From positions 1 to 42,757 of the forward strand of contig JAUCBJ010001615.1 of the NCBI GenBank assembly GCA_032718475.1: a DNA stretch of 42,757 nt, in the 5' to 3' direction. The notes under the pieces are model-generated. The model did not search any database. It was given only the letters and a program-made list of their open reading frames with translations, and was not told where the DNA came from. A program made the translations under genes and the position numbers. Positions 4,125 to 41,711 of the stretch are shown one piece after another (positions within the stretch are counted from its first letter, which is position 1; each line of letters begins with the position of its first letter). This DNA is from Nemertoderma westbladi (lineage: Eukaryota; Animalia; Xenacoelomorpha).

Positions 4125-4345
4125 GGAGGGCGAAATTATTGACATTTGTTGCCGAGGATACAACAGGACCACGGAGAGCGGGAGGGCGCGGTGTGTTCCG
4201 ATCTGCGACCCGCAGTGTCAGAGGGGCCGATGCGTGGCACCCAATGACTGCCAGTGTAGTCTGGGATGGGACGGACTACAATGCGATCGTTTAAATAGGA
4301 CAATCATTGAGAACGAGAGACAAACCGCCAGTATACTGCATTCCG
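4125..4345 (+). CDS. Internal exon of an extracellular EGF-like protein with CCxGY motif + NIM-type EGF repeat (Nimrod/Draper/MEGF10-like module)
   Basis: tttatag|G acceptor and G|gtgagt donor. Translation EGEIIDICCRGYNRTTESGRARCVPICDPQCQRGRCVAPNDCQCSLGWDGLQCDRLNRTIIENERQTASILHS matches CCxGY...CxPxCxxxCxxGxCxAPxxCxCxxGWxGxxC. Confidence 0.8.
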
Positions 4346-4670
4346 GTGAGTTACCTATATACAGTATCCCTATATCCCAGCTGGCACCCGGTGAATATTT
4401 AAATTATTATTATCAGGGAAGACATTGAGAAAATAAAATTGCGCGATGACCCAAGTTCACGGTCCTCCCTTGAGGTCTATTGAGCGTCTACTGGAGTAAT
4501 ATTACTGTACGTATGTATCTCCAGTATACTGCTCTCCGGTGAGATACCTACAGTACTGTACATATCTCCAATATACGGCATTCGGGTGAAGTACCTACAC
4601 TCCGGTATATAAATTTACCACTCGAACCCAAAATAATAAATTTCTATGAGTTACGGTACATAATGTGCAG

Positions 4671-4705
4671 ATTACCAGTTAAATAAATCGCGTTTAGAAT
4701 TATAA
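4671..4705 (+). CDS. Candidate terminal coding exon of the NIM/EGF gene ((D)YQLNKSRLEL*)
   Basis: tgcag acceptor at 4669-4670 is phase-compatible with the phase-1 donor at 4346; TAA at 4703-4705; AATAAA at ~4805. Short, so could be chance. Confidence 0.3.
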
Positions 4706-4974
4706 TTATTATTATTTTGAAGCAGTCCATTTCGTTCGTAAAAAAACTGTATGAAAACAAGGGTTGATTTTAGCAAATAGTATTCAATTTATATTTCAAT
4801 TAGAAATAAAAACTTACAACTAAACACGTGGAGCGTCAAATATTTTATATTATTTTTAAAAAGTCATGGCGCCAAGCAACAACCTCAGTTCAGTGTGTAG
4901 GCATATCTGGGTAATGGCAACTGTAGGAGACCTAGGGCCAAGTTCTGTGAGATACTGTAGTTTGTGGTATTTAG

Positions 4975-5100
4975 CTAAAGTCCTCCACCGATATCCAATG
5001 ATTCCAGTTCATCAACAAGAAAATCAACTAGATTATCGATCTCAATAACTCGGTCTCTGTTACGTTTCACCTCTTCGTCGTAATGTATTTTATCCAATAA
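4975..5100 (-). CDS. DRC3: DRC3/LRRC48 last coding exon (LLDKIHYDEEVKRNRDRVIEIDNLVDFLVDELESLDIGGGL*)
   Basis: tttcag acceptor at 5101-5102, phase 0, TAG stop; resembles the DRC3 C-terminus (IHxDExxRNRxRVxEI). Confidence 0.9.
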   Translation of the reverse strand, partial: LLDKIHYDEEVKRNRDRVIEIDNLVDFLVDELESLDIGGGL

Positions 5101-5256
5101 CTGAAAACATATTAAAAAGTAAAGTTCAATAGATTTTTGACGTGTATAAGAAATTAGCATAATTTTTTGGCCTGCTATACACATTATTATACAGTTAGTA
5201 AGTCGTGTCCGTTTCTTTCCTATTCACTAGTTGCTAACCGTAAATATCGGACGAAC

Positions 5257-5409
5257 CTTAGTCATCCACGAGTTGATTCTTTGTACAATAGAATCCTCTC
5301 GGTTGTCGATCTTTAGTAAGTGTATATCATGGGAAGCACTGAGGGCATTCTGTACAGTATCCTTGTCAACAAAGAGTTCGCGAACCTCATCAGCAACCTC
5401 CTCCTCCAC
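5257..5409 (-). CDS. DRC3: DRC3/LRRC48 exon (VEEEVADEVRELFVDKDTVQNALSASHDIHLLKIDNREDSIVQRINSWMTK)
   Basis: AG/GT boundaries, 153 nt, phase 0-0; contains the conserved DRC3 segment LFVDKDT..NA..ASHDIHLLKIDNRED...RINSW. Confidence 0.95.
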
Positions 5410-7072: not shown

Positions 7073-7222
7073 CTCGTTCTTTACAAACTTCTCCAACATG
7101 TTAGTGGAAAGCTCCATAAGGAACTCGTTGTGATTATTCTGAAGGTCACGCAGTTGAGACATATAGCCCTGACAATTCTCAACGAATGTTGAAACCAAGT
7201 CCGCCAAGTTGCGTTCAAATTC
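7073..7222 (-). CDS. DRC3: DRC3/LRRC48 exon (EFERNLADLVSTFVENCQGYMSQLRDLQNNHNEFLMELSTNMLEKFVKNE)
   Basis: ttgttag| acceptor, |gtcagt donor, 150 nt, phase 0-0; matches DRC3 FERN..D.V..F.EN.Q..M.Q.RDL.N.H.E. Confidence 0.92.
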
Positions 7223-7247
7223 CTAACAATAAGATAGATATCACATA

Positions 7248-9890
7248 TTATTGTGTCCTAACGAATAATGAAGGTTAACTAACTTTTATTGTGTCCTAAC
7301 GAATAAAGAAGGTTAACTAACTTTTATTGTGTCCTAACGAATAAAGAAGGTTAACTAACTTTTATTGTGTCCTAACGAATGAAGTAGGTTATCTAACTTT
7401 TATTGTGTCCTACCAAATAAAGAAGGTTAACTAACTTTTATTGTGTCCTAACGAATAAAGAAGGTTAACTAACTTTTATTGTGTCCTAACGAATGAAGTA
7501 GGTTATCTAACTTTTATTGTGTCCTACCAAATAAAGAAGGTTAACTAACTTTTATTGTGTCCTAACGAATGAAGTAGGTTATCTAACTTTTATTGTGTCC
7601 TACCAAATAAAGAAGGTTAACTAACTTTTATTGTGTCCTAACGAATAAAGAAAGTTAACTAACTTTTATTGTGTCCTAACGAATAAATAGTGTATATTAA
7701 CTGATTAAGTGTTATTGTGTTATCTAACTTTTATTGTGTCCTACCAAATAAAGAAGGTTTAAACTAACATTTATTGTGTCCTAACGAATAAAGAAAGTTA
7801 ACTAATTTTTATTGTGTCCTAACGAATAAAGAAGGTTAACTAACTTTTATTGTGTCCTAACGAATAAAGAGGGTGAATTAACTGACTAAGTGTTATTGTG
7901 TTAACTAACTTGTATTGTGTCCTAACGAATAAAGAAGGTTAACTAACTTTTATTGTGTCCTAACGAATAAAGAGGGTGAATTAACTGACTAAGTGTTATT
8001 GTGTTAACTAACTTGTATTGTGTCCTAACGAATAAAGAAGGATAACTAACTTTTATTGTGTCCTAACGAATAAAGAGGGTGAATTAACTGACTAAGTGTT
8101 ATTGTGTTAACTAACTTTTATTGTGTCCTAACGAATAAAGAAGGTTAACTAACTTTTATTGTGTCCTAACGAATGAAGTAGGTTATCTAACTTTTATTGT
8201 GTCCTACCAAATAAAGAAGGTTAACTAACTTTTATTGTGTCCTAACGAATAAAGAAAGTTAACTAACTTTTATTGTGTCCTAACGAATAAATAGTGTATA
8301 TTAACTGATTAAGTGTTATTGTGTTATCTAACTTTTATTGTGTCCTACCAAATAAAGAAGGTTAACTAACATTTATTGTGTCCTAACGAATAAAGAAAGT
8401 TAACTAATTTTTATTGTGTCCTAACGAATAAAGAAGGTTAACTAACTTTTATTGTGTCCTAACGAATAAAGAGGGTGAATTAACTGACTAAGTGTTATTG
8501 TGTTAACTAACTTGCATTGTGTCCTAACGAATAAAGAAGGTTAACTAACTTTTATTGTGTCCTAACGAATAAAGAGGGTGAATTAACTGACTAAGTGTTA
8601 TTGTGTTAACTAACTTGTATTGTGTCCTAACGAATAAAGAAGGATAACTAACTTTTATTGTGTCCTAACGAATAAAGAGGGTGAATTAACTGACTAAGTG
8701 TTATTGTGTTAACTAACTTGTATTGTGTCCTAACGAATAAAGAAGGTTAACTAACTCTTATTGTGTCCTAACGAAAAAAGGGGGAATATTAACTGATTAA
8801 GTGTTATTGTGTTAACTAACTTTTATTGTGTCGTACCAATTAAAGAAGGTTAACTAACTTTTATTGTGTCCTAACGAATAAAGAGGGTGAATCAACTGAC
8901 TAAGTGTTATTGTGTTAACTAGCGTTTATTCTGTCGTAACGAATAAAGAAAGTTAACTAACTTTTATTCTGACCTAACAAATAAAGATGGTTAACTAAAT
9001 TTATTGTGTTCTAACGAATAAAGAGGGTAAATAAACTGACTAAGTGTTATTGTGTTAACTAACCTTTATTCTGTTGTAACGAATAAAGAAAGTTAACTAA
9101 CTTTTATTCTGACCTAACAAATAAAGATGGTTAACTAAATTTATTGTGTCCTAACGAATAAAGTGGGTATATTAACTGATTAAGTGTTATTGTGTTAACT
9201 AACTTTTATTGTGTCGTACCAATTAAAGAAGGTTAACTAACTTTTATTGTGTCCTAACGTATAATGAAGGTTAACTAACGTTTATTCTGTCGTAACGAAT
9301 AAAGAAAGTTAACTAACTTTTATTCTGACCTAACAAATAAAGAGGGTTAACTAACTTTATTGTGTCCTAACGAATAAAGAGGGTATATTAACTGATTAAG
9401 TGTTATTGTGTTAACTAACTTTTATTGTGTCGTAACAAATAAAGAAGGTTAACTAACTTTTATTGTGTCGTAACGAATAAAGAGGGTGAATTAACTGACT
9501 AAGTGTTATTGTGTTAACTACCTTTTATTGTGTCCTAACGAATAAAGAAGGTTAACTAACTTTTATTGTGTCCTAACGAAAAAAGAGGGTATATTAACTG
9601 ATTAAGTGTTATTGTGTTAACTAACTTTTATTGTGTCGTACCAATTAAAGAAGGTTAACTAACTTTTATTGTGTCCTAACGAATAATGAGGGTAAATCAA
9701 CTGACTAAGTGTTATTGTGTTAACTAACGTTTATTCTGTCGTAACGAATAAAGAAAGTTAACTAACTTTATTCTGACCTAACAAATAAAGAGGGTTAACT
9801 AACTTTATTGTGACCTAACAAATAAAGAGGGTTAACTAACTTTATTGTGACCTAACAAATAAAGAAGGTTAACTAACTTTTATTGTGTCC
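7248..9890 (-). repeat. 38-bp (plus ~65-bp variant) intronic satellite; minus-strand unit GACACAATAAAA GTTAGTTAACCTTCTTTATTCGTTAG
   Basis: Period 38 (TCCTAACG at 7256 and 7294); 65-bp variants carry a TAAGTGTTATTGTG insert. Fills nearly all of DRC3 intron 7223-9877 and overlaps the exon end 9878-9889. Confidence 0.97.
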
Positions 9891-10000
9891 TCCAATTGAT
9901 CAACAAGTTCCAATTCGCAACCCATCATCTGCAGGTTCATAGTCCGAACCGCATCTTTGTAATTCTTGCATATTTTATCGATTTCCTTTTGATCAGATGT
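9878..10000 (-). CDS. DRC3: DRC3/LRRC48 exon (TSDQKEIDKICKNYKDAVRTMNLQMMGCELELVDQLEDTIK)
   Basis: ttacag| acceptor, |gttagt donor, 123 nt, phase 0-0; M..E..LV.QLE.TI motif joins in frame to EFERN. Confidence 0.9.
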
Positions 10001-13369: not shown

Positions 13370-15046
13370 ATGGGTAAACCCAAACGCATTTCGGACGGTT
13401 CATCTCCACGGGAGCAAATGTTCCTAGTTGTTGGCGACATCGTAAAGGAGTTGATAGTCGCCCACAAAGAAGGAAAAAACTTAAACTTAAACAAACTAAA
13501 GTGTGAGGCCTCTGCGCGGTACGGGTTGGCTTCGCAACCCAAACTGGTAGAGATAATAGCGGCGGTACCGCGTGAGTACCGTACCGCATTGGTACCGCGA
13601 CTCCGCGCGAAACCAGTACGAACCGCCAGCGGGATCGCCGTAGTCGCGGTTATGTGTAAACCACATCGCTGCCCGCACATCAGTATGACCGGCAACGTGT
13701 GCGTTTACTGTCCGGGGGGGCCGGACTCTGACTTCGAGTACTCCACGCAGTCGTACACAGGCTACGAGCCGACCTCGATGCGAGCCATCCGAGCGCGGTA
13801 CAACCCGTATCTACAGACGCGGAATCGGGTCGACCAACTCCGACAGCTGGGACACTCTGTGGATAAAGTCGAGTTTATTATTATGGGCGGCACTTTTATG
13901 TGTCTCTCCGAGGCCTACCGGGACTACTTTATACGGAATCTACACGACGCCCTTAGCGGGCACACTAGCAACTCAGTGTCCGAAGCAGTTCGCTTCTCAG
14001 AGCGCAGTAACTCTAAGTGTATCGGTATCACCATAGAAACACGACCGGATTACTGTCTACGCAGACACCTATCCGCTATGCTGCAGTACGGATGTACCCG
14101 GTTGGAGATAGGCGTACAGAGTGTCTACGAGGACGTTGCTAGGGATACCAACCGAGGTCACACAGTGCGCGCTACCACCGAGAGCTTCCAACTGAGTAAG
14201 GACGCCGGTTTCAAGGTGGTCTCTCATATGATGCCGGATCTCCCCAACGTGGGTTGGGAACGGGACATCGACGGGTTCATCGAACTATTCGAGAACCCAG
14301 AGTTCCGACCCGACGGGTTGAAGATTTACCCGACGCTGGTGATCCGAGGAACCGGGTTGTACGAACTGTGGAAGACAGGGAGGTATAAAAGCTACCCGCC
14401 AGCTATGCTGGTTGACTTGGTCTCCCGGATACTGTCCCTTGTCCCGCCGTGGACCCGAGTCTACCGGGTACAACGGGACATCCCCATGCCATTAGTGACC
14501 TCGGGCGTGGAGCACGGGAATCTGCGGGAGCTAGCCCTGCAGCGGATGGCGGACCTCGGCTTGCGGTGTCGGGACGTCCGGACACGGGAGGTCGGCATTC
14601 AGGAGATACACAACTCGGTGCGTCCGTACCACACGGAGTTAGTGCGGAGGGAGTATTGGGCGAACGGCGGGTGGGAGACCTTCCTATCCTACGAGGACGC
14701 TGAACAGGACATACTGATTGGTCTACTCAGACTGCGGCAATGCTCACCAGATACATACAGACCCGAGTTGTTACCTAGTGACGGTCGCACGGTCTCTATA
14801 GTTCGGGAACTACACGTCTACGGGTCCGTTGTTCCCGTGAGTTCCCGAGATCCCGGGAAGTTCCAACACCAGGGGTTCGGAACCTTGTTGATGGAGGAGG
14901 CGGAACGCATTGCGTGTGAGGAACACGGTTCTTATAAACTCGCCGTTATATCGGGGGTGGGAACGAGGAATTATTACAAGAAGTTGGGATACTGTCTAGA
15001 TGGAGTTTATATGACCAAATTATTGGATTACCAACAATTTATTTAA
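13370..15046 (+). CDS. ELP3: Elongator complex protein 3 (radical-SAM + KAT tRNA wobble-uridine acetyltransferase), intronless CDS, 558 aa
   Basis: [23 protein letters not shown]...[34 protein letters not shown]; CX9CX2C Fe-S motif; ETRPDYC; RELHVYG; QHQGFG acetyl-CoA motif; [11 protein letters not shown]. Full length and uninterrupted. Confidence 0.99.
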
Positions 15047-15204
15047 TAATTCAGTTTATTCTGTAATTATTTATTTGATTTTTTCGAGGTGTAATTAAAT
15101 ATTAATAGTACTGTTCGAAATAGATTGCGGTTGAGCTTGTTTATATGCACTAACCTGGGTCTGGGCTGGGTTGATGGGTTGGATATAAGAAACACACGTA
15201 CACG

Positions 15205-15332
15205 CACGAACACACTCACATGGGTTAGATCTAAGGAACACATACATATGGCTGTATGGGTTAGATCCTATAGAACACACTCACATGGGCTAGATCCTAT
15301 TGAACACACTCACCTGGGTTAGATCTAAGAAC
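15205..15332 (-). repeat. 3-4 decayed ~30-bp tandem copies of the DRC3 exon end + donor (TAGATCTAACCCAG|GTGAGTGTGTTC)
   Basis: Plus strand GAACACACTCACATGGGTTAGATCTA-like units at ~15208, 15255, 15273 and 15302. Confidence 0.75.
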
Positions 15333-15475
15333 GCTGATTTCTTATATTCCAGAAAGTCGTTTATTGTTTCTGCACATCTGTTAGCGTTTTGTGTTTTGGC
15401 ATCTTGCAGAGAGGCGAAAAAGTCCTGTACCTCTTCGGAACGCTTTTTGTGTTGTTTCAGTCCGTATTCAAAAAG
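15314..15475 (-). CDS. DRC3: DRC3/LRRC48 exon (LFEYGLKQHKKRSEEVQDFFASLQDAKTQNANRCAETINDFLEYKKSAFLDLTQ)
   Basis: ccccttag| acceptor, CAG|gtgagt donor, 162 nt, phase 0-0; FEYGLKQ..KR..E motif of DRC3. Confidence 0.93.
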
Positions 15476-15544: not shown

Positions 15545-17860
15545 AACTTACTGTACGTGTAAAGGGTTAACTTACTGTACGTGTAAAGGGCTAACTTACT
15601 GTACGTGTAAAGGGCTAACTTACTGTACGTGTAAAGGGTTAACTTACTGTACGTGTAAAGGGTTAACTTACTGTACGTGTAAAGGGTTAACTTACTGTAC
15701 GTGTAAAGGGTTAACTTACTGTACGTGTAAAGGGTTAACTTACTGTACGTGTAAAGGGTTAACTTACTGTACGTGTAAAGGGTTAACTTACTGTACTTGT
15801 AAGGGGTTAACTTACTGTACGTGTAAAGGGTTAACTTACTGTACGTGTAAAGGGTTAACTTACTGTACGTGTAAAGGGTTAACTTACTGTACGTGTGAAG
15901 GGTTAACTTACTGTACGTGTAAAGGGTTAACTTACTGTACGTGTAAAGGGTTAACTTACTGTACGTGTAAAGGGTTAACTTACTGTACGTGTAAAGGGTT
16001 AACTTACTGTACGTGTAAAGGGTTAACTTACTGTACGTGTAAAGGGTTAACTTACTGTACGTGTAAAGGGTTAACTTACTGTACGTGTAAAGGGCTAACT
16101 TACTGTACGTGTAAAGGGTTAACTTACTGTACGGAACGTGTAAAGGGTTAACTTACTGTACGTGTAAAGGGTTAACTTACTGTACGTGTAAAGGGTTAAC
16201 TTACTGTACGTGTAAAGGTTAACTTACTGTACGTGTAAAGGGTTAACTTACTGTACGTGTAAAGGGTTAGTGTAAAGGGTTAACTTACTATACGTGTAAA
16301 GGGTTAACTTACTGTACGTGTAAAGGGTTAACTTACTGTACGTGTAAAGGGTTAACTTACTGTACGTGGAAAGGGTTAACTTACTGTACGTGTAAAGGGT
16401 TAACTTACTGTACGTGTAAATGGTTAACTTACTGTACATGTAAAGGGTTAACTTACTGTACCTGTAAAGGGTTAACTTACTGTACGTGTAAAGGGTTAAC
16501 TTACTGTACGTGTAAAGGGTTAAATTACTGTACGTGTAAAGGGTTAACTTACTGTACGTGTAAAGGGTTAACTTACTGTACGTGTAAAGGGTTAACTTAC
16601 TGTACGTGTAAAGGGTTAACTTACTGTACGTGTAAAGGGTTAACTTACTGTAAGTGTAAAGGGTTAACTTACCGTACGTGTAAAGGGTTAACTTACTGTA
16701 CTTGTTGTAAAGGGTTAACTTACTGTACGTGTAAAGGGTTAACTTACTGTACGTGTAAAGGGTTAACTTACTGTACGTGTAAAGGGTTACCTTACTGTAC
16801 GTGTAAAGGGTTAACTTACTGTACGTGTAAGGGTTAACTTACTGTACGTGTAAAGGGTTAACTTACTGTACGTGTAAAGGGTTAACTTACTGTACGTGTA
16901 AAGGGTTAACTTACTGTACTTGTAAAGGGTTAACTTACTGTACGTGTAAAGGGTTAACTTACTGTACGTATTAAGGGTTAACTTACTGTAAAGGGCTAAC
17001 TTACTGTACGTGTAAAGGGTTAACTTACTGTACGTGTAAAGGGTTAGTGTAAAGGGTTAACTTACTGTACTTGTAAAGGGTTAACTTACTGTACGTGTAA
17101 AGGGCTAACTTACTGTACGTGTAAAGGGTTAACTTACTGTACGTGTAAAGGGTTAACTTACTGTACGTGTAAAGGGTCAACTTACTGTGCGTGCAAAGGG
17201 TTAGTGTAAAGGGTTAACTTACTGTACGTGTAAAGGGTTAACTTACTGTACGTGTAAAGGGTTAACTTACTGTACGTGTAAAGGGTTAACTTACTGTACG
17301 TGTAAAGGGTTAACTTACTGTGCTTGCAAAGGGTTAGTGTAAAGGGTTAACTTATTGTACGTGTAAAGGGCTAACTTACTGTACGTGTAAGGGTTAACTT
17401 ACTGTACGTGTAAAGGGTTAACTTACTGTACGTGTAAAGGGTTAACTTACTGTACGTGTAAAGGGTTAACTTACTGTACGTGTAAAGGGTTAGTGTAAAG
17501 GGTTAACTTACTGTACTTGTAAAGGGTTAACTTACTGTACGTGTAAAGGGCTAACTTACTGTACGTGTAAAGGGTTAACTTACTGTACGTGTACAGGGTT
17601 AACTTACTGTACGTGTAAAGGGTTAACTTACTGTACGTGTAAAGGGTTAGTGTAAAGGGTTAACTTACTGTACGTGTAAAGGGTTAACTTACTGTACGTG
17701 TAAAGGGTTAACTTACTGTACGCGTAAAGGGCTAACTTACTGTACGTGTAAAGGGTTAACTTACTGTACGTGTAAAGGGTTAACTTACTGTACGTGTAAA
17801 GGGTTAACTTACTGTACGTGTAAAGGGTTAACGTACTGTACGTGTAAATGGTTAACTTAC
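15545..17860 (-). repeat. 24-bp satellite (plus: CTTACTGTACGTGTAAAGGGTTAA; minus: GTAAGTTAACCCTTTACACGTACA), ~95 copies
   Basis: Highly homogeneous tandem array; gives the (LTYCTCKG)n pseudo-ORF 15519-16151. Confidence 0.98.
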
Positions 17861-17984
17861 AGGCGGCAATGTGAATGAAAATGTCGGAGTTACAATCTTG
17901 ATACATAATTAAGTAAAATGATTTACTGAATTTAAGTACTTGTGTAGGCCTATAGATACTAGATTACTTCTTGAATTCCTACTC

Positions 17985-26900: not shown

Positions 26901-29900
26901 CTCCAGTGGTTTCTCCCTACCTGTATAGATATACTAGTACACTTTTCTTTGAAGGCCTCCAGTGGTTCCTCCCTACCGGTATAGATATACTAGTACACGT
27001 TTCTTTGACCTCCTCAAGTGGTTCCTTCCTGCCTGTATAGATATACTAGTACACGTTTCTTTGAGCTCCTCAAGTGGTTCCTTCCTGCCTGTATAGATAT
27101 ACTAGTACACTTTTCTTTGAAGGCCTCCAGTGGTTCCTCCCTACCTGTATAGATATACTAGTACACGTTTCTTTGACCTCCTCAAGTGGTTCCTCCCTAC
27201 CGGTATAGATATACTAGTACACTTTTCTTTGACCTCCTCCAGTGGTTCCTCCCTACCGGTATAGATATACTAGTACACGTTTCTTTGACCTCCTCAAGTG
27301 GTTCCTTCCTGCCTGTATAGATATACTAGTACACGTTTCTTTGACCTCCTCAAGTGGTTCCTTCCTGCCTGTATAGATATACTAGTACACTTTTCTTTGA
27401 ACTCATCCAGTGGTTCCTTCCTACCTGTATAGATACTAGTACACTTTTCTTTGAACTCCTCCAGTGGTCCCTCCCTACCTGTATAGATAGATGTACTAGT
27501 ACACTTTTCTTTGAACTCCTCCAGTGGTTCCTCCCTACCTGTATAGATACTTGTACACTTTTCTTAGAACTCCTCCAGTGGTTCCTTCCTACCTGTATAG
27601 ATATACTAGTACACTTTTCTTTGACCTCCTCTAGTGGTTCCTCCGTACCTGTATAGATATACTAGTACACTTTTCTTTGACCTCCTCCAGTGGTTCCTCC
27701 CTACCTGTATAGATATACTCGTACACTTTTCTTTGAAGGCCTCCAGTGGTTCCTCCTTACCTGTATAGATATACTAGTACACTTTTCTTTGAACTCATCC
27801 AGTGGTTCCTTCCTACCTGTATAGATACTAGTACACTTTTCTTAGAACTCCTCCAGTGGTTCCTCCCTACCGGTATAGATATACTAGTACACTTTTCTTT
27901 GAACTCATCCAGTGGTTCCTTCCTACCTGTATAGATACTAGTACACTTTTCTTTGACCTCCTCCAGTGGTCCCTCCCTACCTGTATAGATAGATGTACTA
28001 GTACACTTTTCTTTGAACTCCTCCAGTGGTTCCTCCCTACCTGTATAGATACTTGTACACTTTTCTTAGAACTCCTCCAGTGGTTCCTTCCTACCTGTAT
28101 AGATATACTAGTACACTTTTCTTTGAACTCCTCCAGTGGTTCCTCCCTACCTATATAGATATACTAGTACACTTTTCTTTGACCTCCTCCAGTGGTTTCT
28201 CCCTACCTGTATAGATATACTAGTACACTTTTCTTTGACCTCCTCCAGTGGTTCCTCCCTACCTATATAGATATACTAAGTACACTTTTCTTTGACCTCC
28301 TCCAGTGGTTCCTCCCTACCTGTATAGATACCAGTACACTTTTCTTTGAACTCCTCTAGTGGTTCCTCCCTACCTGTATAGATATACTAGTACACTTTTC
28401 TTAGAACTCCTCCAGTGGTTCCTCCCTACCGGTATAGATATACTAGTACACTTTTCTTTGAACTCCTCCAGTGGTTCCTCCCTACCTATATAGATATACT
28501 AAGTACACTTTTCTTTGACCTCCTCCAGTGGTTCCTCCCTACCTGTATAGATACCAGTACACTTTTCTTTGAACTCCTCTAGTGGTTCCTCCCTACCTGT
28601 ATAGATATACTAGTACACTTTTCTTTGAACTCCTCCAGTGGTTCCTCCCTATCGGTATAGATATACTAGTACACTTTTCTTTGACCTCCTCCAGTGGTTT
28701 CTCCCTACCTGTATAGATACTAGTACACTTTTCTTTGAATTCCTCCAGTGGTTCCTCCCTACCTGTATAGATATACTAGTACACTTTTCTTTGAACTCCT
28801 CCAGTGGTTCCTCCCTATCGGTATAGATATACTAGTACACTTTTCTTTGAACTCCTCCAGTGGTTCCTCCCTACCTGTATAGATACTTGTACACTTCTTA
28901 GAACTCCTCCAGTGGTTCCTCCCTACCTATATAGATATACTAGTACACTTTTCTTTGACCTGCTCCAGTGGTTCCTCCCTACCTGTATAGATACCAGTAC
29001 ACTTTTCTTTGAACTCCTCTAGTGGTTCCTCCCTACCTGTATAGATATACTAGTACACTTTTCTTTGAACTCCTCCAGTGGTTCCTCCCTATCGGTATAG
29101 ATATACTAGTACACTTTTCTTTGAACTCCTCCAGTGGTTCCTCCCTACCTGTATAGATACTTGTACACTTTTCTTAGAACTCCTCCAGTGGTTCCTTCCT
29201 ACCTGTATAGATATACTAGTACACTTTTCTTTGAACTCCTCCAGTGGTTCCTCCCTACCTATATAGATATACTAGTACACATTTCTTTGATCTCCTCCAG
29301 TGGTTCCTCCCTCCCTGTATAGATATACTAGTACACTTTTCTTTGATCTCCTCCAGTGGTTCCTCCCTACCTGTATAGATACTTGTACACTTTTCTTTGA
29401 ACTCCTCCAGTGGTTCCTCCCTACCTGTATAGATATACTACAGTATTACACTTTTCTTTGAAGGCCTCCAGTGGTTCCTCCCTACCTGTATAGATATACT
29501 AGTACACTTTTCTTTGAACTCATCCAGTGGTTCCTTCCTGCCTGTATAGATAGATATACTAGTACACTTTTCTTTGAATTCTTCCAGTGGTTCCTCCCTA
29601 CCTGTATAGATACTAGTACACTTTTCTTTGAACTCCTCCAGTGGTTCCTTCCTACCTGTATAGATAGATATACTAGTACACATTTCTTTGACCTCCTCCA
29701 GTGGTTTCTCCCTACCTGTATAGATACTAGTACACTTTTCTTTGAACTCCTCCAGTGGTTGCTCCCTACCGGTATAGATATAGTAGTAGTGTGGATGAGT
29801 TTCTTTGAACTCATCCAGTGGTTCCTTCCTACCTGTATAGATAGATATACTAGTACACTTTTCTTTGAAGGCCTCCAGTGGTTCCTCCCTACCGGTATAG

Positions 29901-32900
29901 ATATACTAGTACACTTTTCTTTGACCTCCTCCAGTGGTTTCTCCCTACCGGTATAGATATACTAGTACACTTTTCTTTGAAGGCCTCTAGTGGTTCCTCC
30001 CTACCTGTATAGATATACTAGTACACCTTTCTTTGAACTCATCCAGTGGTTCCTCCCTACCTGTATAGATATACTAGTACACTTTTCTTTGAAGGCCTCT
30101 AGTGGTTCCTCCCTACCTGTATAGATATACTAGTACACCTTTCTTTGAACTCATCCAGTGGTTCCTCCCTACCTGTATAGATAGATATACTAGTACACTT
30201 TTCTTTGAACTCCTCCAGTGGTTGCTCCCTACCGGTATAGATATACTAGTAGTGTGGATGAGTTTCTTTGAACTCATCCAGTGGTTCCTTCCTACCTGTA
30301 TAGATAGATATACTAGTACACTTTTCTTTGAAGGCCTCCAGTGGTTCCTCCCTACCTGTATAGATATACTAGTACACTTTTCTTTGATCTCCTCCAGTGG
30401 TTCCTCCCTACCTGTATAGATATACTAGTACACTTTTCTTTGATCTCCTCCAGTGGTTCCTCCCTACCTGTATAGATATACTAGTACACTTTTCTTTGAC
30501 CTCCTCCAGTGGTTTCTCCCTACCGGTATAGATATACTAGTACACTTTTCTTTGAAGGCCTCTAGTGGTTCCTCCCTACCTGTATAGATATACTAGTACA
30601 CCTTTCTTTGAACTCATCCAGTGGTTCCTCCCTACCTGTATAGATATACTAGTACACTTTTCTTTGAAGGCCTCTAGTGGTTCCTCCCTACCTGTATAGA
30701 TATACTAGTACACCTTTCTTTGAACTCATCCAGTGGTTCCTCCCTACCTGTATAGATAGATATACTAGTACACTTTTCTTTGAACTCCTCCAGTGGTTGC
30801 TCCCTACCGGTATAGATATACTAGTAGTGTGGATGAGTTTCTTTGAACTCATCCAGTGGTTCCTTCCTACCTGTATAGATAGATATACTAGTACACTTTT
30901 CTTTGAAGGCCTCCAGTGGTTCCTCCCTACCTGTATAGATATACTAGTACACTTTTCTTTGACCTCCTCCAGTGGTTCCTCCTTACCTGTATAGATATAC
31001 TAGTACACTTTTCTTTGAAGGCCTCCAGTGGTTCCTCCCTACCTGTATAGATATACTAGTACACTTTTCTTTGAAGGTCTCCAGTGGTTCCTCCCTACCT
31101 GTATAGATATACTAGTACACTTTTCTTTGACCTCCTCCAGTGGTTCCTCCCTACCGGTATAGATATACTAGTACACTTTTCTTTGAAGGCCTCCAGTGGT
31201 TCCTCCTTACCTGTATAGATATACTAGTACACTTTTCTTTGAACTCCTCCAGTGGTTCCTCCCTACCGATATAGATATACTAGTACACTTTTCTTTGAAG
31301 GCCTCCAGTGGTTCCTCCCTACCTGTATAGATATACTAGTACACTTTTCTTTGACCTCCTCCAGTGGTTCCTCCCTACCTGTATAGATACTAGTACACTT
31401 TTCTTTGAACTCATCCAGTGGTTCCTTCCTGCCTGTATAGATATACTAGTACACGTTTCTTTGACCTCCTCAAGTGGTTCCTTCCTGCCTGTATAGATAT
31501 ACTAGTACACGTTTCTTTGACCTCCTCAAGTGGTTCCTTCCTGCCTGTATAGATATACTAGTACACTTTTCTTTGAAGGCCTCCAGTGGTTCCTCCCTAC
31601 CGGTATAGATATACTAGTACACGTTTCTTTGACCTCCTCAAGTGGTTCCTTCCTGCCTGTATAGATATACTAGTACACTTTTCTTTGAAGGCCTCCAGTG
31701 GTTCCTCCCTACCGGTATAGATATACTAGTACACGTTTCTTTGACCTCCTCAAGTGGTTCCTTCCTGCCTGTATAGATATACTAGTACACTTTTCTTTGA
31801 ATTCCTCCAGTGGTTCCTCCCTACCTGTATAGATATACTAGTACACTTTTCTTTGACCTCCTCCAGTGGTTTCTCCCTACCTGTATAGATATACTAGTAC
31901 ACTTTTCTTTGAAGGCCTCCAGTGGTTCCTCCCTACCGGTATAGATATACTAGTACACGTTTCTTTGACCTCCTCAAGTGGTTCCTTCCTGCCTGTATAG
32001 ATATACTAGTACACGTTTCTTTGACCTCCTCAAGTGGTTCCTTCCTGCCTGTATAGATATACTAGTACACTTTTCTTTGAAGGCCTCCAGTGGTTCCTCC
32101 CTACCTGTATAGATATACTAGTACACGTTTCTTTGACCTCCTCAAGTGGTTCCTCCCTACCGGTATAGATATACTAGTACACTTTTCTTTGACCTCCTCC
32201 AGTGGTTCCTCCCTACCGGTATAGATATACTAGTACACGTTTCTTTGACCTCCTCAAGTGGTTCCTTCCTGCCTGTATAGATATACTAGTACACTTTTCT
32301 TTGACCTCCTCAAGTGGTTCCTCCCTACCTGTATAGATACCAGTACACTTTTCTTTGAACTCCTCTAGTGGTTCCTCCCTACCTGTATAGATATACTAGT
32401 ACACTTTTCTTTGAACTCATCCAGTGGTTCCTTCCTACCTGTATAGATACTAGTACACTTTTCTTTGAACTCCTCCAGTGGTCCCTCCCTACCTGTATAG
32501 ATAGATGTACTAGTACACTTTTCTTTGAACTCCTCCAGTGGTTCCTCCCTACCTGTATAGATACTTGTACACTTTTCTTAGAACTCCTCCAGTGGTTCCT
32601 TCCTACCTGTATAGATATACTAGTACACTTTTCTTTGACCTCCTCTAGTGGTTCCTCCGTACCTGTATAGATATACTAGTACACTTTTCTTTGACCTCCT
32701 CCAGTGGTTCCTCCCTACCTGTATAGATATACTCGTACACTTTTCTTTGAAGGCCTCCAGTGGTTCCTCCTTACCTGTATAGATATACTAGTACACTTTT
32801 CTTTGAACTCATCCAGTGGTTCCTTCCTACCTGTATAGATACTAGTACACTTTTCTTAGAACTCCTCCAGTGGTTCCTCCCTACCGGTATAGATATACTA

Positions 32901-35900
32901 GTACACTTTTCTTTGAACTCATCCAGTGGTTCCTTCCTACCTGTATAGATACTAGTACACTTTTCTTTGACCTCCTCCAGTGGTCCCTCCCTACCTGTAT
33001 AGATAGATGTACTAGTACACTTTTCTTTGAACTCCTCCAGTGGTTCCTCCCTACCTGTATAGATACTTGTACACTTTTCTTAGAACTCCTCCAGTGGTTC
33101 CTTCCTACCTGTATAGATATACTAGTACACTTTTCTTTGAACTCCTCCAGTGGTTCCTCCCTACCTGTATAGATATACTAGTACACTTTTCTTTGACCTC
33201 CTCCAGTGGTTTCTCCCTACCTGTATAGATATACTAGTACACTTTTCTTTGACCTCCTCCAGTGGTTCCTCCCTACCTATATAGATATACTAAGTACACT
33301 TTTCTTTGACCTCCTCCAGTGGTTCCTCCCTACCTGTATAGATACCAGTACACTTTTCTTTGAACTCCTCTAGTGGTTCCTCCCTACCTGTATAGATATA
33401 CTAGTACACTTTTCTTAGAACTCCTCCAGTGGTTCCTCCCTACCGGTATAGATATACTAGTACACTTTTCTTTGAACTCCTCCAGTGGTTCCTCCCTACC
33501 TATATAGATATACTAAGTACACTTTTCTTTGACCTCCTCCAGTGGTTCCTCCCTACCTGTATAGATACCAGTACACTTTTCTTTGAACTCCTCTAGTGGT
33601 TCCTCCCTACCTGTATAGATATACTAGTACACTTTTCTTTGAACTCCTCCAGTGGTTCCTCCCTATCGGTATAGATATACTAGTACACTTTTCTTTGACC
33701 TCCTCCAGTGGTTTCTCCCTACCTGTATAGATACTAGTACACTTTTCTTTGAATTCCTCCAGTGGTTCCTCCCTACCTGTATAGATATACTAGTACACTT
33801 TTCTTTGAACTCCTCCAGTGGTTCCTCCCTATCGGTATAGATATACTAGTACACTTTTCTTTGAACTCCTCCAGTGGTTCCTCCCTACCTGTATAGATAC
33901 TTGTACACTTCTTAGAACTCCTCCAGTGGTTCCTCCCTACCTATATAGATATACTAGTACACTTTTCTTTGACCTGCTCCAGTGGTTCCTCCCTACCTGT
34001 ATAGATACCAGTACACTTTTCTTTGAACTCCTCTAGTGGTTCCTCCCTACCTGTATAGATATACTAGTACACTTTTCTTTGAACTCCTCCAGTGGTTCCT
34101 CCCTATCGGTATAGATATACTAGTACACTTTTCTTTGAACTCCTCCAGTGGTTCCTCCCTACCTGTATAGATACTTGTACACTTTTCTTAGAACTCCTCC
34201 AGTGGTTCCTTCCTACCTGTATAGATATACTAGTACACTTTTCTTTGAACTCCTCCAGTGGTTCCTCCCTACCTATATAGATATACTAGTACACATTTCT
34301 TTGATCTCCTCCAGTGGTTCCTCCCTCCCTGTATAGATTTACTAGTACACTTTTCTTTGATCTCCTCCAGTGGTTCCTCCCTACCTGTATAGATACTTGT
34401 ACACTTTTCTTTGAACTCCTCCAGTGGTTCCTCCCTACCTGTATAGATATACTACAGTATTACACTTTTCTTTGAAGGCCTCCAGTGGTTCCTCCCTACC
34501 TGTATAGATATACTAAGTACACTTTTCTTTGACCTCCTCGAGTGGTTCCTCCCTACCTGTATAGATATACTAGTACACTTTTCTTTGAAGGCCTCCAGTG
34601 GTTCCTCCATGCCTGTATAGATATACTAGTACACTTTTCTTTGAAGGCCTCCAGTGGTTCCTCCCTACCTGTATAGATATACTACAGTATTACACTTTTC
34701 TTTGAAGGCCTCCAGTGGTTCCTCCCTACCTGTATAGATATACTAAGTACACTTTTCTTTGACCTCCTCAAGTGGTTCCTCCCTACCTGTATAGATATAC
34801 TAGTACACTTTTTTTTGAAGGCCTCCAGTGGTTCCTCCCTAGCTGTATAGATATACTAGTACACTTTTCTTTGACCTCCTCAAGTGGTTCCTCCCTACCT
34901 GTATAGATATACTAGTACACTTTTCTTTGACCTCCTCAAGTGGTTCCTCCCTACCTGTATAGATACTAGTACACTTTTCTTTGACTTCCTCAAGTGGTTC
35001 CTCCCTACCTGTATAGATATACTAAGTACACTTTTCTTTGAAGGCCTCCAGTGGTTCCTCCCTACCTGTATAGATATACTAGTACACTTTTCTTTGAAGG
35101 CCTCCAGTGGTTCCTCCCTACCTGTATAGATATACTAGTACACTTTTCTTTGAAGGCCTCCTGTGTAGTTCCTCCCTACCTGTATAGATATACTAGTACA
35201 CTTTTCTTTGAAGGCCTCCAGTGGTTCCTCCATGCCTGTATAGATATACTAAGTACACTTTTCTTTGACCTCCTCAAGTGGTTCCTCCCTACCTGTATAG
35301 ATATACTAGTACACTTTTCTTTGACCTCCTCAAGTGGTTCCTCCCTACCTGTATAGATATACTAGTACACTTTTCTTTGACCTCCTCAAGTGGTTCCTCC
35401 CTACCTGTATAGATACTAGTACACTTTTCTTTGACTTCCTCAAGTAGTTCCTCCCTACCTGTATAGATATACTAGTACACTTTTCTTTGACCTCCTCAAG
35501 TGGTTCCTCCCTACCTGTATAGATACTAGTACACTTTTCTTTGACTTCCTCAAGTGGTCCCTCCCTACCTGTATAGATATACTTGTACACTTTTCTTTGA
35601 ACTCCTCCAGTGGTTCCTCCCTACCTGTATAGATACTAGTACACTTTTCTTTGACTTCCTCAAGTGGTTCCTCCCTACCTGTATAGATATACTAAGTACA
35701 CTTTTCTTTGAAGGCCTCCAGTGGTTCCTCCCTACCTGTATAGATATACTAGTACACTTTTCTTTGAAGGCCTCCAGTGGTTCCTCCCTACCTGTATAGA
35801 TATACTACAGTATTACACTTTTCTTTGAAGGCCTCCAGTGGTTCCTCCCTACCTGTATAGATATACTAAGTACACTTTTCTTTGACCTCCTCAAGTGGTT

Positions 35901-38900
35901 CCTCCCTACCTGTATAGATATACTAGTACACTTTTCTTTGAAGGCCTCCAGTGGTTCCTCCCTAGCTGTATAGATATACTAGTACACTTTTCTTTGACCT
36001 CCTCAAGTGGTTCCTCCCTACCTGTATAGATATACTAGTACACTTTTCTTTGACCTCCTCAAGTGGTTCCTCCCTACCTGTATAGATACTAGTACACTTT
36101 TCTTTGACTTCCTCAAGTGGTTCCTCCCTACCTGTATAGATATACTAAGTACACTTTTCTTTGAAGGCCTCCAGTGGTTCCTCCCTACCTGTATAGATAT
36201 ACTAGTACACTTTTCTTTGAAGGCCTCCAGTGGTTCCTCCCTACCTGTATAGATATACTAAGTACACTTTTCTTTGACCTCCTCAAGTGGTTCCTCCCTA
36301 CCTGTATAGATATACTAGTACACTTTTCTTTGAAGGCCTCCAGTGGTTCCTCCCTACCTGTATAGATATACTAGTACACTTTTCTTTGACCTCCTCAAGT
36401 GGTTCCTCCCTACCTGTATAGATATACTAGTACACTTTTCTTTGACCTCCTCAAGTGGTTCCTCCCTACCTGTATAGATACTAGTACACTTTTCTTTGAC
36501 TTCCTCAAGTGGTTCCTCCCTACCTGTATAGATATACTAGTACACTTTTCTTTGAAGGCCTCCAGTGGTTCCTCCCTACCTGTATAGATATACTAGTACA
36601 CTTTTCTTTGAAGGCCTCCAGTGGTTCCTCCCTACCTGTATAGATATACTAGTACACTTTTCTTTGAAGGCCTCCAGTGGTTCCTCCCTACCTGTATAGA
36701 TATACTAGTACACTTTTCTTTGAAGGCCTCCAGTGGTTCCTCCCTACCTGTATAGATATACTAGTACACTTTTCTTTGAAGGCCTCCAGTGGTTCCTCCC
36801 TACCTGTATAGATATACTAGTACACTTTTCTTTGAAGGCCTCCAGTGGTTCCTCCCTACCTGTATAGATATACTAGTACACTTTTCTTTGAAGGCCTCCA
36901 GTGGTTCCTCCCTACCTGTATAGATATACTAGTACACTTTTCTTTGAAGGCCTCCAGTGGTTCCTCCCTACCTGTATAGATATACTAGTACACTTTTCTT
37001 TGAAGGCCTCCAGTGGTTCCTCCCTACCTGTATAGATATACTAGTACACTTTTCTTTGAAGGCCTCCAGTGGTTCCTCCCTACCTGTATAGATATACTAG
37101 TACACTTTTCTTTGAAGGCCTCCAGTGGTTCCTCCCTACCTGTATAGATATACTAGTACACTTTTCTTTGACCTCCTCAAGTGGTTCCTCCCTACCTGTA
37201 TAGATACTAGTACACTTTTCTTTGACTTCCTCAAGTGGTTCCTCCCTACCTGTATAGATATACTAGTACACTTTTCTTTGAAGGCCTCCAGTGGTTCCTC
37301 CCTACCTGTATAGATATACTAGTACACTTTTCTTTGAAGGCCTCCAGTGGTTCCTCCCTACCTGTATAGATATACTAGTACACTTTTCTTTGACCTCCTC
37401 AAGTGGTTCCTCCCTACCTGTATAGATATACTAGTACACTTTTCTTTGAAGGCCTCCAGTGGTTCCTCCCTACCTGTATAGATATACTAGTACACTTTTC
37501 TTTGACCTCCTCAAGTGGTTCCTCCCTACCTGTATAGATATACTAGTACACTTTTCTTTGACCTCCTCAAGTGGTTCCTCCCTACCTGTATAGATACTAG
37601 TACACTTTTCTTTGACTTCCTCAAGTGGTTCCTCCCTACCTGTATAGATATACTAAGTACACTTTTCTTTGAAGGCCTCCAGTGGTTCCTCCCTACCTGT
37701 ATAGATATACTAGTACACTTTTCTTTGAAGGCCTCCAGTGGTTCCTCCCTACCTGTATAGATATACTAGTACACTTTTCTTTGAAGGCCTCCAGTGGTTC
37801 CTCCCTACCTGTATAGATATACTAGTACACTTTTCTTTGAAGGCCTCCAGTGGTTCCTCCCTACCTGTATAGATATACTAGTACACTTTTCTTTGAAGGC
37901 CTCCAGTGGTTCCTCCCTACCTGTATAGATATACTAGTACACTTTTCTTTGAAGGCCTCCAGTGGTTCCTCCCTACCTGTATAGATATACTAGTACACTT
38001 TTCTTTGAAGGCCTCCAGTGGTTCCTCCCTACCTGTATAGATATACTAGTACACTTTTCTTTGAAGGCCTCCAGTGGTTCCTCCCTACCTGTATAGATAT
38101 ACTAGTACACTTTTCTTTGAAGGCCTCCAGTGGTTCCTCCCTACCTGTATAGATATACTAGTACACTTTTCTTTGAAGGCCTCCAGTGGTTCCTCCCTAC
38201 CTGTATAGATATACTAGTACACTTTTCTTTGAAGGCCTCCAGTGGTTCCTCCCTACCTGTATAGATATACTAGTACACTTTTCTTTGAAGGCCTCCAGTG
38301 GTTCCTCCCTACCTGTATAGATATACTAGTACACTTTTCTTTGAAGGCCTCCAGTGGTTCCTCCCTACCTGTATAGATATACTAGTACACTTTTCTTTGA
38401 AGGCCTCCAGTGGTTCCTCCCTACCTGTATAGATATACTAGTACACTTTTCTTTGAAGGCCTCCAGTGGTTCCTCCCTACCTGTATAGATATACTAGTAC
38501 ACTTTTCTTTGACCGGCCTCCAGTGGTTCCTCCCTACCTGTATAGATATACTAGTACACTTTTCTTTGAAGGCCTCCAGTGGTTCCTCCCTACCTGTATA
38601 GATATACTAGTACACTTTTCTTTGAAGGCCTCCAGTGGTTCCTCCCTACCTGTATAGATATACTAGTACACTTTTCTTTGAAGGCCTCCAGTGGTTCCTC
38701 CCTACCTGTATAGATATACTAGTACACTTTTCTTTGAAGGCCTCCAGTGGTTCCTCCCTACCTGTATAGATATACTAGTACACTTTTCTTTGAAGGCCTC
38801 CAGTGGTTCCTCCCTACCTGTATAGATATACTAGTACACTTTTCTTTGAAGGCCTCCAGTGGTTCCTCCCTACCTGTATAGATATACTAGTACACTTTTC

Positions 38901-40889
38901 TTTGACTTCCTCAAGTGGTTCCTCCCTACCTGTATAGATATACTAGTACACTTTTCTTTGAAGGCCTCCAGTGGTTCCTCCCTACCTGTATAGATATACT
39001 AGTACACTTTTCTTTGACTCCTCAAGTGGTTCCTCCCTACCTGTATAGATATACTAGTACACTTTTCTTTGAAGGCCTCCAGTGGTTCCTCCCTACCTGT
39101 ATAGATATACTAGTACACTTTTCTTTGAAGGCCTCCAGTGGTTCCTCCCTACCTGTATAGATATACTAGTACACTTTTCTTTGAAGGCCTCCAGTGGTTC
39201 CTCCCTACCTGTATAGATATACTAGTACACTTTTCTTTGAAGGCCTCCAGTGGTTCCTCCCTACCTGTATAGATATACTAGTACACTTTTCTTTGAAGGC
39301 CTCCAGTGGTTCCTCCCTACCTGTATAGATATACTAGTACACTTTTCTTTGAACTCCTCCAGTGGTTCCTCCCTACCTGTATAGATATACTAGTACACTT
39401 TTCTTTGACCTCCTCCAGTGGTTCCTCCCTACCTGTATAGATATACTAGTACACTTTTCTTTGAACTCCTCCAGTGGTTCCTCCCTACCTGTATAGATAT
39501 ACTAGTACACTTTTCTTTGACGTCCTCCAGTGGTTCCTCCCTACCTGTATAGATATACTAGTACACTTTTCTTTGAAGGCCTCCAGTGGTTCCTCCCTAC
39601 CTGTATAGATATACTAGTACACTTTTCTTTGAAGGCCTCCAGTGGTTCCTCCCTACCTGTATAGATATACTAGTACACTTTTCTTTGAAGGCCTCCAGTG
39701 GTTCCTCCCTACCTGTATAGATATACTAGTACACTTTTCTTTGAAGGCCTCCAGTGGTTCCTCCCTACCTGTATAGATATACTAGTACACTTTTCTTTGA
39801 AGGCCTCCAGTGGTTCCTCCCTACCTGTATAGATATACTAGTACACTTTTCTTTGAAGGCCTCCAGTGGTTCCTCCCTACCTGTATAGATATACTAGTAC
39901 ACTTTTCTTTGAAGGCCTCCAGTGGTTCCTCCCTACCTGTATAGATATACTAGTACACTTTTCTTTGAAGGCCTCCAGTGGTTCCTCCCTACCTGTATAG
40001 ATATACTAGTACACTTTTCTTTGAAGGCCTCCAGTGGTTCCTCCCTACCTGTATAGATATACTAGTACACTTTTCTTTGAAGGCCTCCAGTGGTTCCTCC
40101 CTACCTGTATAGATATACTAGTACACTTTTCTTTGAAGGCCTCCAGTGGTTCCTCCCTACCTGTATAGATATACTAGTACACTTTTCTTTGAAGGCCTCC
40201 AGTGGTTCCTCCCTACCTGTATAGATATACTAGTACACTTTTCTTTGAAGGCCTCCAGTGGTTCCTCCCTACCTGTATAGATATACTAGTACACTTTTCT
40301 TTGAAGGCCTCCAGTGGTTCCTCCCTACCTGTATAGATATACTAGTACACTTTTCTTTGAAGGCCTCCAGTGGTTCCTCCCTACCTGTATAGATATACTA
40401 GTACACTTTTCTTTGAACTCCTCCAGTGGTTCCTCCCTACCTGTATAGATATACTAGTACACTTTTCTTTGAAGGCCTCCAGTGGTTCCTCCCTACCTGT
40501 ATAGATATACTAGTACACTTTTCTTTGAAGGCCTCCAGTGGTTCCTCCCTACCTGTATAGATATACTAGTACACTTTTCTTTGAAGGCCTCCAGTGGTTC
40601 CTCCCTACCTGTATAGATATACTAGTACACTTTTCTTTGAAGGCCTCCAGTGGTTCCTCCCTACCTGTATAGATATACTAGTACACTTTTCTTTGAAGGC
40701 CTCCAGTGGTTCCTCCCTACCTGTATAGATATACTAGTACACTTTTCTTTGAAGGCCTCCAGTGGTTCCTCCCTACCTGTATAGATATACTAGTACACTT
40801 TTCTTTGAAGGCCTCCAGTGGTTCCTCCCTACCTGTATAGATATACTAGTACACTTTTCTTTGAAGGCCTCCAGTGGTTCCTCCATGCC
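17985..40889 (-). repeat. 56-bp satellite, ~400 copies (~22.9 kb); minus-strand unit GTAGG + GAGGAACCACTGGAGGCCTTCAAAGAAAAGTGTACTAGTATATCTATACAG
   Basis: Period 56 with 52/54/57/60-bp indel variants; the terminal copy is the coding end of DRC3 exon 40833-41012. Confidence 0.99.
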
Positions 40890-41012
40890 TGGTAACTGGT
40901 TGAATTTCCTCCCATCTGCATCCTCGCTATACAGCTCGTCATAAACATACGATCCGTTTAGTTTTTCAACGTAAGCTTCGATGTAAAGCTCCTGTTGTTT
41001 CGTATATTCATC
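40833..41012 (-). CDS. DRC3: DRC3/LRRC48 exon (DEYTKQQELYIEAYVEKLNGSYVYDELYSEDADGRKFNQLPGMEEPLEAFKEKCTSISIQ)
   Basis: tttctag| acceptor, CAG|gtaggg donor, 180 nt, phase 0-0; A.VE.LNGS...D..Y.ED..G.....LPG motif; joins in frame to LFEYGLKQ. Confidence 0.92.
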
Positions 41013-41329
41013 CTAGAAAACAAAAAATACACAATGATAGGCCTAGTGTAAAAACGGCGTTTAAGTAGGCCTACGTTAAAAATGGAAGGGAGTTGTTATG
41101 TAGTACATTATTAAATTATATTATGACATTGTACAGTAGTATTGATTGCAGATAGGGGTTGATGGGGGGGGGGTCTATTTTCTACGTTTTACGATGTATC
41201 GCGCAACAGAATACAAGCGATACAACAACGCGATACTCATTATAACGGTTGCCGGCAGCGATGTAAATTCAATAATATCTGATCTAACCTTTACCAAATG
41301 TTACCGATCATAGCTCGGCTCCAACTAAC

Positions 41330-41483
41330 CATTTCCGCCCGGCGGCGATCCTCCGCTCTCTCATCCTCCCGAAGTTCTTCAATCGACGAACTATAAATCT
41401 TCTCTGCGGCTTCACGGGACGCCTCATCGACAAGTCGGAAATCAAAGAAAACTAGATACGGAAGATGAGCGATAGTGTAGTTC
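41330..41483 (-). CDS. DRC3: DRC3/LRRC48 exon (NYTIAHLPYLVFFDFRLVDEASREAAEKIYSSSIEELREDERAEDRRRAEM), LRR-cap region
   Basis: tttccag| acceptor phase 2, ATG|gttagt donor phase 0, 154 nt; LRRcap Y..Y.IA.LP.L...D motif. Confidence 0.88.
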
Positions 41484-41711
41484 CTGGAAATATAATATAC
41501 AAACTACAGTATAGGTACGGAGGATGTGGTGCTATAGTGTAGTTCCTGTATTCGGCCAATATCGGCCGAAGAAATATTTACTTTTTTCCATAGTGGAATT
41601 GATGTAAAAAGAAAAAAAAAAGAGTAATTTAACAGGCAATGGGGTTTGGCATAATCATACTGCAAATATCATATATTGCAACAGAAGCTGAGCAAAAATT
41701 GGTTAGGGCTA

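Follow-up and report, generated by a model that had tools for sequence, protein, structure and literature searches.

The gene for DRC3 in the xenacoelomorph Nemertoderma westbladi contains tandem repeats that begin within its exons and extend across splice junctions into the introns. In the 42,757-nt stretch that we analyzed (contig JAUCBJ010001615.1 of assembly GCA_032718475.1, positions 1 to 42,757; hereafter the window), three of the seven DRC3 donors are repeated into the adjacent intron, as a 56-mer, a 38-mer and a 29-mer, and one acceptor is also duplicated. These arrays are junction-spanning minisatellites, since their units contain an exon edge together with its splice site, the boundary at donor 40833 and at acceptor 41483 is one that is used in a spliced contig, the extra copies are intronic and normal splicing persists in that contig. 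We consider it likely that they are of the type called mirages in lancelets, that is, junction minisatellites that arose by slippage, grew by unequal exchange, are tolerated because splicing uses the exon-side site and outlive other arrays because they are anchored in an exon. A first-pass annotation of the same sequence had reported reiteration at four donors and one acceptor; the DRC3 donors at 40833, 9878 and 15314 were recovered both by Tandem Repeats Finder (TRF) and by direct reading, whereas the fourth donor, at 4345 in an EGF-domain exon, is putative.

The DRC3 gene model consists of eight minus-strand exons (Table 1), which when joined give a single 389-amino-acid reading frame, with all introns being GT-AG. 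A query with exon F returned 12 proteins annotated as DRC3, LRRC48-like or unnamed, and each of the 12 shares 40-48% identity with the joined protein; in the alignment, the row from the window has no gap at any exon junction. In a tree of 20 rows (the window, 4 of the 12 proteins just named and 15 of 80 loci), the window was placed among animal-like sequences on a long branch and without a supported sister. The exons are uniform in size (122-180 nt), and six of the seven introns are in phase 0. Arrays account for 99% of introns B-C and D-E and for 77% of all DRC3 intron sequence in the window. From reading frame and homology, donors 15314 and 9878 are predicted to be real boundaries.

The largest array is found at the donor of exon B. 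TRF called a 56-mer at 17983-40891, overlapping donor 40833, with 407.6 copies over about 23 kb, in agreement with the maximum of ~400 copies reported by the first-pass annotation. Each unit comprises 51 exon nt and 5 intron nt. The first intronic unit differs from the last 56 nt of exon B at only two positions, both within the first five letters, and these 56 nt are flanked by CAG-G at either side. Because the part of exon B that is repeated aligns with DRC3 homologues, we conclude that the 56-mer derives from coding sequence, with copying from exon to intron.

Evidence on splicing came from sequencing runs that contain the test stretch or part of it (five runs, none on record as RNA), which were compared with the window over 40760-42757. 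In run X4, one 2004-nt contig matches exons only; it skips 317 and 899 nt and departs from the window at 40833. Given that the contig is spliced in this manner, the exon-side acceptor of exon A and the first donor of exon B are used in it, in agreement with the exon boundaries previously drawn at acceptor 41483 and donor 40833. Beyond the end of exon B the contig continues for 921 letters, compared with 714 predicted coding letters, which is compatible with the gene model but is no test of it. Donor copies 2-5 of the 56-mer each lead to an early stop. Together with use of the first donor in X4, these stops bear out the earlier suggestion that duplications across a junction are tolerated since the first donor preserves the mRNA.

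The 56-mer array is most similar to the exon at its exon side. Identity to the exon copy was observed for 23 of the first 25 units (exon copy counted) versus 8 of the 273 units beyond unit 125, and a variable site was of the exon type in 42 of the first 50 units versus 17 of the last 102. In addition, four units deep in the array keep the head that is otherwise found only in the exon, and all four show the exon-type variable site, compared with 55 of the 303 other units beyond unit 95. A total of 127 distinct unit types occur in a structured order, and one block within the array is duplicated at a period of 4960 nt (99.3% identical over about 2.9 kb), which may reflect internal growth of the array or a mis-join in the assembly.

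If the latter, the copy number would be uncertain, and this block, along with the fact that no contig compared crosses an exon-array border, raises the question of whether the arrays or their contacts with junctions are assembly artefacts. However, the 127 distinct unit types follow a structured order, which would not be expected of an artefact. In runs X1, X2 and X3, which come from two samples, the depth of the 56-mer and of its main variant greatly exceeds that of the flanks, although contig depths added together do not give a copy number, and the duplicate at the exon A acceptor is covered by contigs from both samples. We thus regard an artefact as extremely improbable. Runs X1-X3 also contain 56-mer variants that are missing from the window, in contigs that carry no information on array length. 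The X2 and X3 contigs leave most of exon B uncovered, a hole that is uninformative, and an 856-nt X3 contig matches 60 nt of exon B (40855-40914) and then departs from the window. This contig and the unit variants of X1 missing from the window may represent another allele or dispersed copies of the unit.

The second large array occupies intron D-E. TRF called the 38-mer family at 7248-9891, overlapping donor 9878, and direct reading divided the array into 75 segments, of which 37 open with the exact last 12 nt of exon D. The segments are preceded by AG in 50 cases and followed by GT in 52, such that many units read AG, 12 exon nt, GT, and the unit is bounded by AG-G. Its exon part aligns with DRC3 homologues, indicating that here, too, the exon was the source of the intronic copies. 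Upstream exon sequence gave no match to the remaining, intronic part of the unit, which is 26 nt long (p 0.08). A specific origin of this intronic part from the acceptor of exon E was rejected, as it resembles that acceptor no more closely than it does two others. At the donor of exon C, TRF called the 29-mer at 15256-15332 (2.7 copies); direct reading gives three intronic copies, and in all three a T replaces the G at -1.

At acceptor 41483, the reported reiteration is limited to two copies: the start of exon A is preceded by one decayed copy 62 nt upstream, which has its own CAG before it. The working acceptor of exon A sits at the border of the decayed copy and the exon, and the duplicate still matches past the first 15 nt (p 0.005). 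The more fitting interpretation of this arrangement would be that an exon duplication replaced the splice site.

One possibility raised by the composition of these units is that the arrays are functional, either with AG-GT composites acting as recursive splice points or with the in-frame 12-nt cassettes of the 38-mer acting as micro-exons. An intact AGGT in 313 of 396 56-mer units and the AG and GT that border most 38-mer segments are consistent with this idea. Nevertheless, splice dinucleotides are conserved no better than other unit positions (the decoy AG and GT bases of the 56-mer rank 6, 33, 19 and 12 in variability among 56 positions), the 29-mer decoys lack the G at -1, and X4 shows a plain junction at the end of exon B, making a function of this kind very unlikely. 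The sense-strand orientation of the splice signals, which had been put forward as evidence for a common pattern, is automatic for any copied junction and carries no weight.

Table 1. Features of the window. Positions are those of the forward strand; exon letters follow the direction of DRC3 transcription.
Feature	Position	Strand	Basis or remark
DRC3 exon Z, first in window	42383..42504	-	open frame, homology, spliced X4 contig
Decayed copy of exon A start (last 62 nt of intron Z-A)	41484..41545	-	alignment
DRC3 exon A	41330..41483	-	open frame, homology, spliced X4 contig
DRC3 exon B (last 51-56 nt = copy 1 of 56-mer)	40833..41012	-	frame, homology, X4 contig
56-mer satellite, about 400 intronic units	17983..40832	-	TRF, unit reading
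24-mer array, about 99 copies, donor-like core	15545..17860	-	TRF; contacts no identified exon
DRC3 exon C	15314..15475	-	open frame and homology only
29-mer at exon C donor, three intronic copies	15174..15333	-	about 20 exon nt plus donor hexamer
ELP3, intronless bystander, nested antisense in DRC3 intron C-D	13370..15046	+	protein matches
DRC3 exon D (last 12 nt within 38-mer)	9878..10000	-	open frame and homology only
38-mer array, 38/19/46-nt higher-order structure	7248..9877	-	TRF, segment reading; fills 99% of intron D-E
DRC3 exon E, without junction repeat	7073..7222	-	open frame and homology
DRC3 exon F, without junction repeat	5257..5409	-	open frame and homology
DRC3 exon G, last coding, with stop codon	4975..5100	-	open frame and homology
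Putative EGF donor region, 3-5 degenerate, dispersed copies	4326..4610	+	spacings 47, 193, 240 nt
EGF-domain exon (PF23301, E 2.4e-9), putative donor 4345/4346	4125..4345	+	domain match
24-mer array, 11.8 copies, no exon identified	100..386		TRF

The putative EGF donor differs from the DRC3 cases in several respects. It has a strong consensus, yet the reading frame stays open through the donor to 4428; TRF does not call its copies, and a homologue search for the exon found support in neither of two candidates. Upstream of this exon, inspection by eye suggested that 4030-4124 may contain a small exon and a very short intron (about 32-36 nt), with further candidate exons at about 3245-3815.

The repeat units of the window had been described as unrelated to each other. 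This holds for the four DRC3 junction units, which are mutually unrelated, but 2 of the 21 unit pairs compared are related: the 38-mer shares a donor-like core with the intronic 24-mer (empirical p 0.0025), and a stretch of 12 nt from the EGF repeat recurs without change on the opposite strand in the 24-mer at 100-386 (0 of 2000 controls). As previously noted, the 24-mer at 15545-17860 consists of splice-signal-like units, which on the sense strand of DRC3 include the donor-like GTAAGT. Its core resembles the donor of exon D, and the array lies just past the far end of the 56-mer; speculatively, an older donor of exon B would have been displaced to this position.

To what extent are duplications concentrated at junctions? 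We grouped the local duplications of the window by hand into 18 events; because the window had been picked for its pattern, the P values below overstate significance. Junctions were covered by 5 of the 18 events versus 0.87 expected (P 0.0009), and under the loosest null 2.43 were expected (P 0.07), such that P ranged from 0.001 to 0.07 over six all-event nulls. P was 0.019 when either copy was allowed to count, 0.004-0.044 when the EGF event was removed and 0.004-0.073 when 8 guessed junctions were added. For arrays with at least three copies, 4 of 6 were on junctions versus 0.25 expected (P 3e-5). By position, a local duplicate (at least 16 of 18 matches) was found at 4 of 8 donors and 1 of 9 acceptors versus 2.8% of background positions, but this background omits the large arrays and hence overstates the excess, and the event test is preferred. 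We conclude that the junction excess within this window is probably real, even though the window was selected for the pattern.

The selection of the window bears directly on the possibility that there is no real excess and that a multi-hit window was picked by chance from a minisatellite-rich genome. Most events (13 of 18) are off junctions and most junctions (12 of 17) have no repeat, as this explanation would predict; the P values over the six nulls and, above all, that for multi-copy arrays make it unlikely. Alternatively, a lineage-wide mutational process that targets junctions, for example through breaks that are coupled to transcription or splicing and repaired by local duplication, would result in more births of arrays at these places. 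Such a process would fit the share of events and of multi-copy arrays found on junctions, the predominance of donors over acceptors and the finding that none of the 16 junctions is duplicated in the homologous gene on L014, the genomic homologue described below; the lancelet authors also suspect a clade-wide trait of unclear mechanism (PMC3087553). However, the evidence comes from a single window chosen post hoc, with P up to 0.07 under the loosest null, and short homologies at the unit borders are enough as an origin, so that we find a dedicated process improbable as well. These explanations, and the others weighed here, are not fully exclusive of each other.

We infer a slippage origin, unequal exchange and survival bias for the junction minisatellites of DRC3, as follows. 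Slippage between short AG- or CAGG-type homologies at an exon edge would create a second copy, and the mRNA would be unchanged by extra copies because the exon-side splice site stays in use. Unequal exchange would then amplify the unit; the block duplication in the 56-mer and the higher-order repeats are read as signs of this step. Selection would hold copy 1 fixed, as it is exon, making it an enduring template from which the array is renewed even as its far end degenerates, and an array anchored in this way could not be lost wholly since it would be renewed from the exon side. The longer survival of anchored arrays, together with the frequency of AG-G words at junctions, could produce an excess without any dedicated machine. 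Tolerance alone, in comparison, would lead to parity with intronic sites and no excess.

Several points weigh against this interpretation. First, the proposal that growth proceeds from the exon edge, made initially for the window as a whole, is matched by the 56-mer gradient and not by the 38-mer, where an exon-side gradient is absent and the three proximal copies match the exon worse than distal ones do. Second, the exon-like proximal block of the 56-mer could be a recent local expansion that borders the exon by chance, and the four units with an exon head sit in two pairs and may record just one or two events. Third, the RNA support covers two introns and one more donor in a single assembled contig, which would hide rare isoforms. 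Finally, that survival bias could generate an excess of several-fold is reasoning on our part.

The intron positions of DRC3 were compared with those of one genomic homologue, L014, out of 80 loci, which makes this a distant comparison. None of the seven introns in the window coincides with the seven aligned L014 positions (nearest offsets 12, 14, 21, 33, 33, 67 and 80 nt), and at five of the L014 positions there are matching gaps between vertebrate isoforms, as judged from proteins rather than genomes. Thus, the DRC3 introns of the window look lineage-specific by this sequence comparison, which leaves room for intron gain. The exon parts of the 38-mer (9878-9889, 12 nt) and the 29-mer (15314-15334, about 19-21 nt) begin at most 2 nt from an L014 intron position (offsets 12 and 21, respectively). 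This proximity, noticed post hoc, could be due to chance or could be a trace of intron sliding, and the 56-mer does not fit it.

One explanation for these shifted positions is that introns B-C and D-E were made or moved by the duplications themselves, through intron gain by tandem duplication; in detail, the 56-nt exon piece between two CAG-G sites would have been doubled, and the junction between the copies would have become a donor through a GC-to-GT change. This scenario draws on the lack of shared positions with L014 and the isoform gaps at five L014 positions, the near identity of the 56-mer to the end of exon B and its four units with an exon head, the extent to which arrays fill both introns and the location of the working exon A acceptor, which lies where a decayed exon copy ends. 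The full footprint of tandem duplication, in which both intron ends are derived from exon sequence, was, however, found at none of B-C, Z-A and D-E: only the 5' end of B-C and only the 3' end of Z-A are exon-derived, the intronic 26 nt of the 38-mer neither match upstream exon sequence nor resemble the E acceptor specifically, the acceptor of B-C is not a unit copy and is separated from the array by 2.5 kb of other sequence, and no downstream exon begins with GT. The link to the AGGT model of intron gain suggested in the first-pass annotation is therefore incomplete. Furthermore, junction repeats are missing from both ends of three introns that look lineage-specific, such that most gains would need another route, and we consider that these duplications are quite unlikely to have made or moved the two introns. 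A broader proposal concerns a lineage in which the ancestral DRC3 introns have been replaced: throughout the genome, duplications at exon edges would drive the birth of introns, the replacement of splice sites and the growth of giant introns. The 25-kb B-C intron would then have originated when a 56-nt exon piece was doubled and the junction between its copies turned into the donor, the exon would still be re-seeding the array from its edge and each array would be a dated record of its exon; we view this proposal as improbable.

Intron C-D also contains ELP3, which is intact and intronless, with most of the listed matches at 80-81% identity and no close relative indicated; GC content is about 56% across 14001-15000. 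The fully shifted DRC3 intron set and the intronless ELP3 suggest that introns have been lost and regained extensively in the lineage. Two-copy intronic duplications lie off junctions at 11115-11387, 12071-12213 and 6237-6431 (periods 148-154, 122 and 110-124 nt). Dispersed-repeat fragments occupy 41700-42240, where contig coverage is deep and all four runs have many loose ends; a segment of 118 nt, between 41747 and 41866, is missing from X2 and X3.

The pattern had initially been considered undescribed as a genome-wide system, but comparable repeats are already published. In PMC3087553 and PMC3902484, lancelet mirages are minisatellites over exon-intron boundaries, described for Adh3, two globins (BflGb6 and BflGb9), troponin C and PGBD5; PGBD5 has two of them, and troponin C is cited there (PMC3902484). 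Both donor- and acceptor-side cases are spliced normally, concerted evolution is described (PMC3087553, PMC3902484), and the mirages were proposed to be a clade-wide trait and a route of intron gain (PMC3087553). Judging from titles and abstract openings, in a literature coverage that was incomplete and excluded supplements, we found no published genome-wide enrichment test or exon-side gradient. If a genome-wide junction excess and lineage-specific introns prove true, the intron-gain model proposed for lancelet mirages would become directly testable, and an exon-side gradient offers a measurable signature for asking if a satellite persists through selection on its exon. Such arrays can also mislead gene predictors and assemblers.

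The DRC3 arrays resemble lancelet mirages in having boundary-spanning units at donors or acceptors, several per gene, with normal splicing. They differ in scale (2-7 copies in the lancelet globin and PGBD5 mirages versus about 400 copies over 23 kb for the DRC3 56-mer), in the almost wholly exon-derived units at the B donor and the A acceptor, in the greater homogeneity of the 56-mer at the exon edge and in the apparently lineage-specific positions of the host introns. Similar comparisons can be made with models of intron gain, namely the tandem-duplication (Rogers) model (PMC3296678) and work on repeats at exon-intron boundaries that form new human introns (PMC2812944). As in the Rogers model, duplicated exon sequence is bounded by AG-G proto-splice sites and the introns concerned look lineage-specific; unlike in that model, no DRC3 intron has both ends from the duplicated exon piece.

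Human variable number tandem repeats (VNTRs) that span donors are a second precedent. Borensztajn et al. (PMC1557585) list F7 IVS7 (37 bp, 5-9 copies), CBS IVS13 (15-20), 6-16 (25 pseudo-sites), LMNB2 (100 bp, 10-15) and PDGF intron 4 (81 bp, 16-18), in which the first monomer straddles the border of exon and intron and splicing relies solely or predominantly on the most upstream donor; by a title cited there, the LMNB2 repeat covers most of its intron. Likewise, the edge monomer of the DRC3 56-mer spans the boundary, and the most upstream donor is used in the X4 contig. CBS and 6-16 also use downstream pseudo-sites, whereas none was seen for DRC3 in the one contig. The human genes in that source have one array each, compared with three donors and one acceptor in DRC3 and more than tenfold more copies; with about 400 near-perfect donors after one exon, DRC3 provides a test of first-donor selection well beyond the scale of F7. 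We conclude that the DRC3 arrays are real and belong to a known class of repeats, of which they are a dense and very large example. They are distinguished by their scale, by an exon-side gradient with exon-head units, by two nearly pure-exon units and by a fully shifted set of introns.

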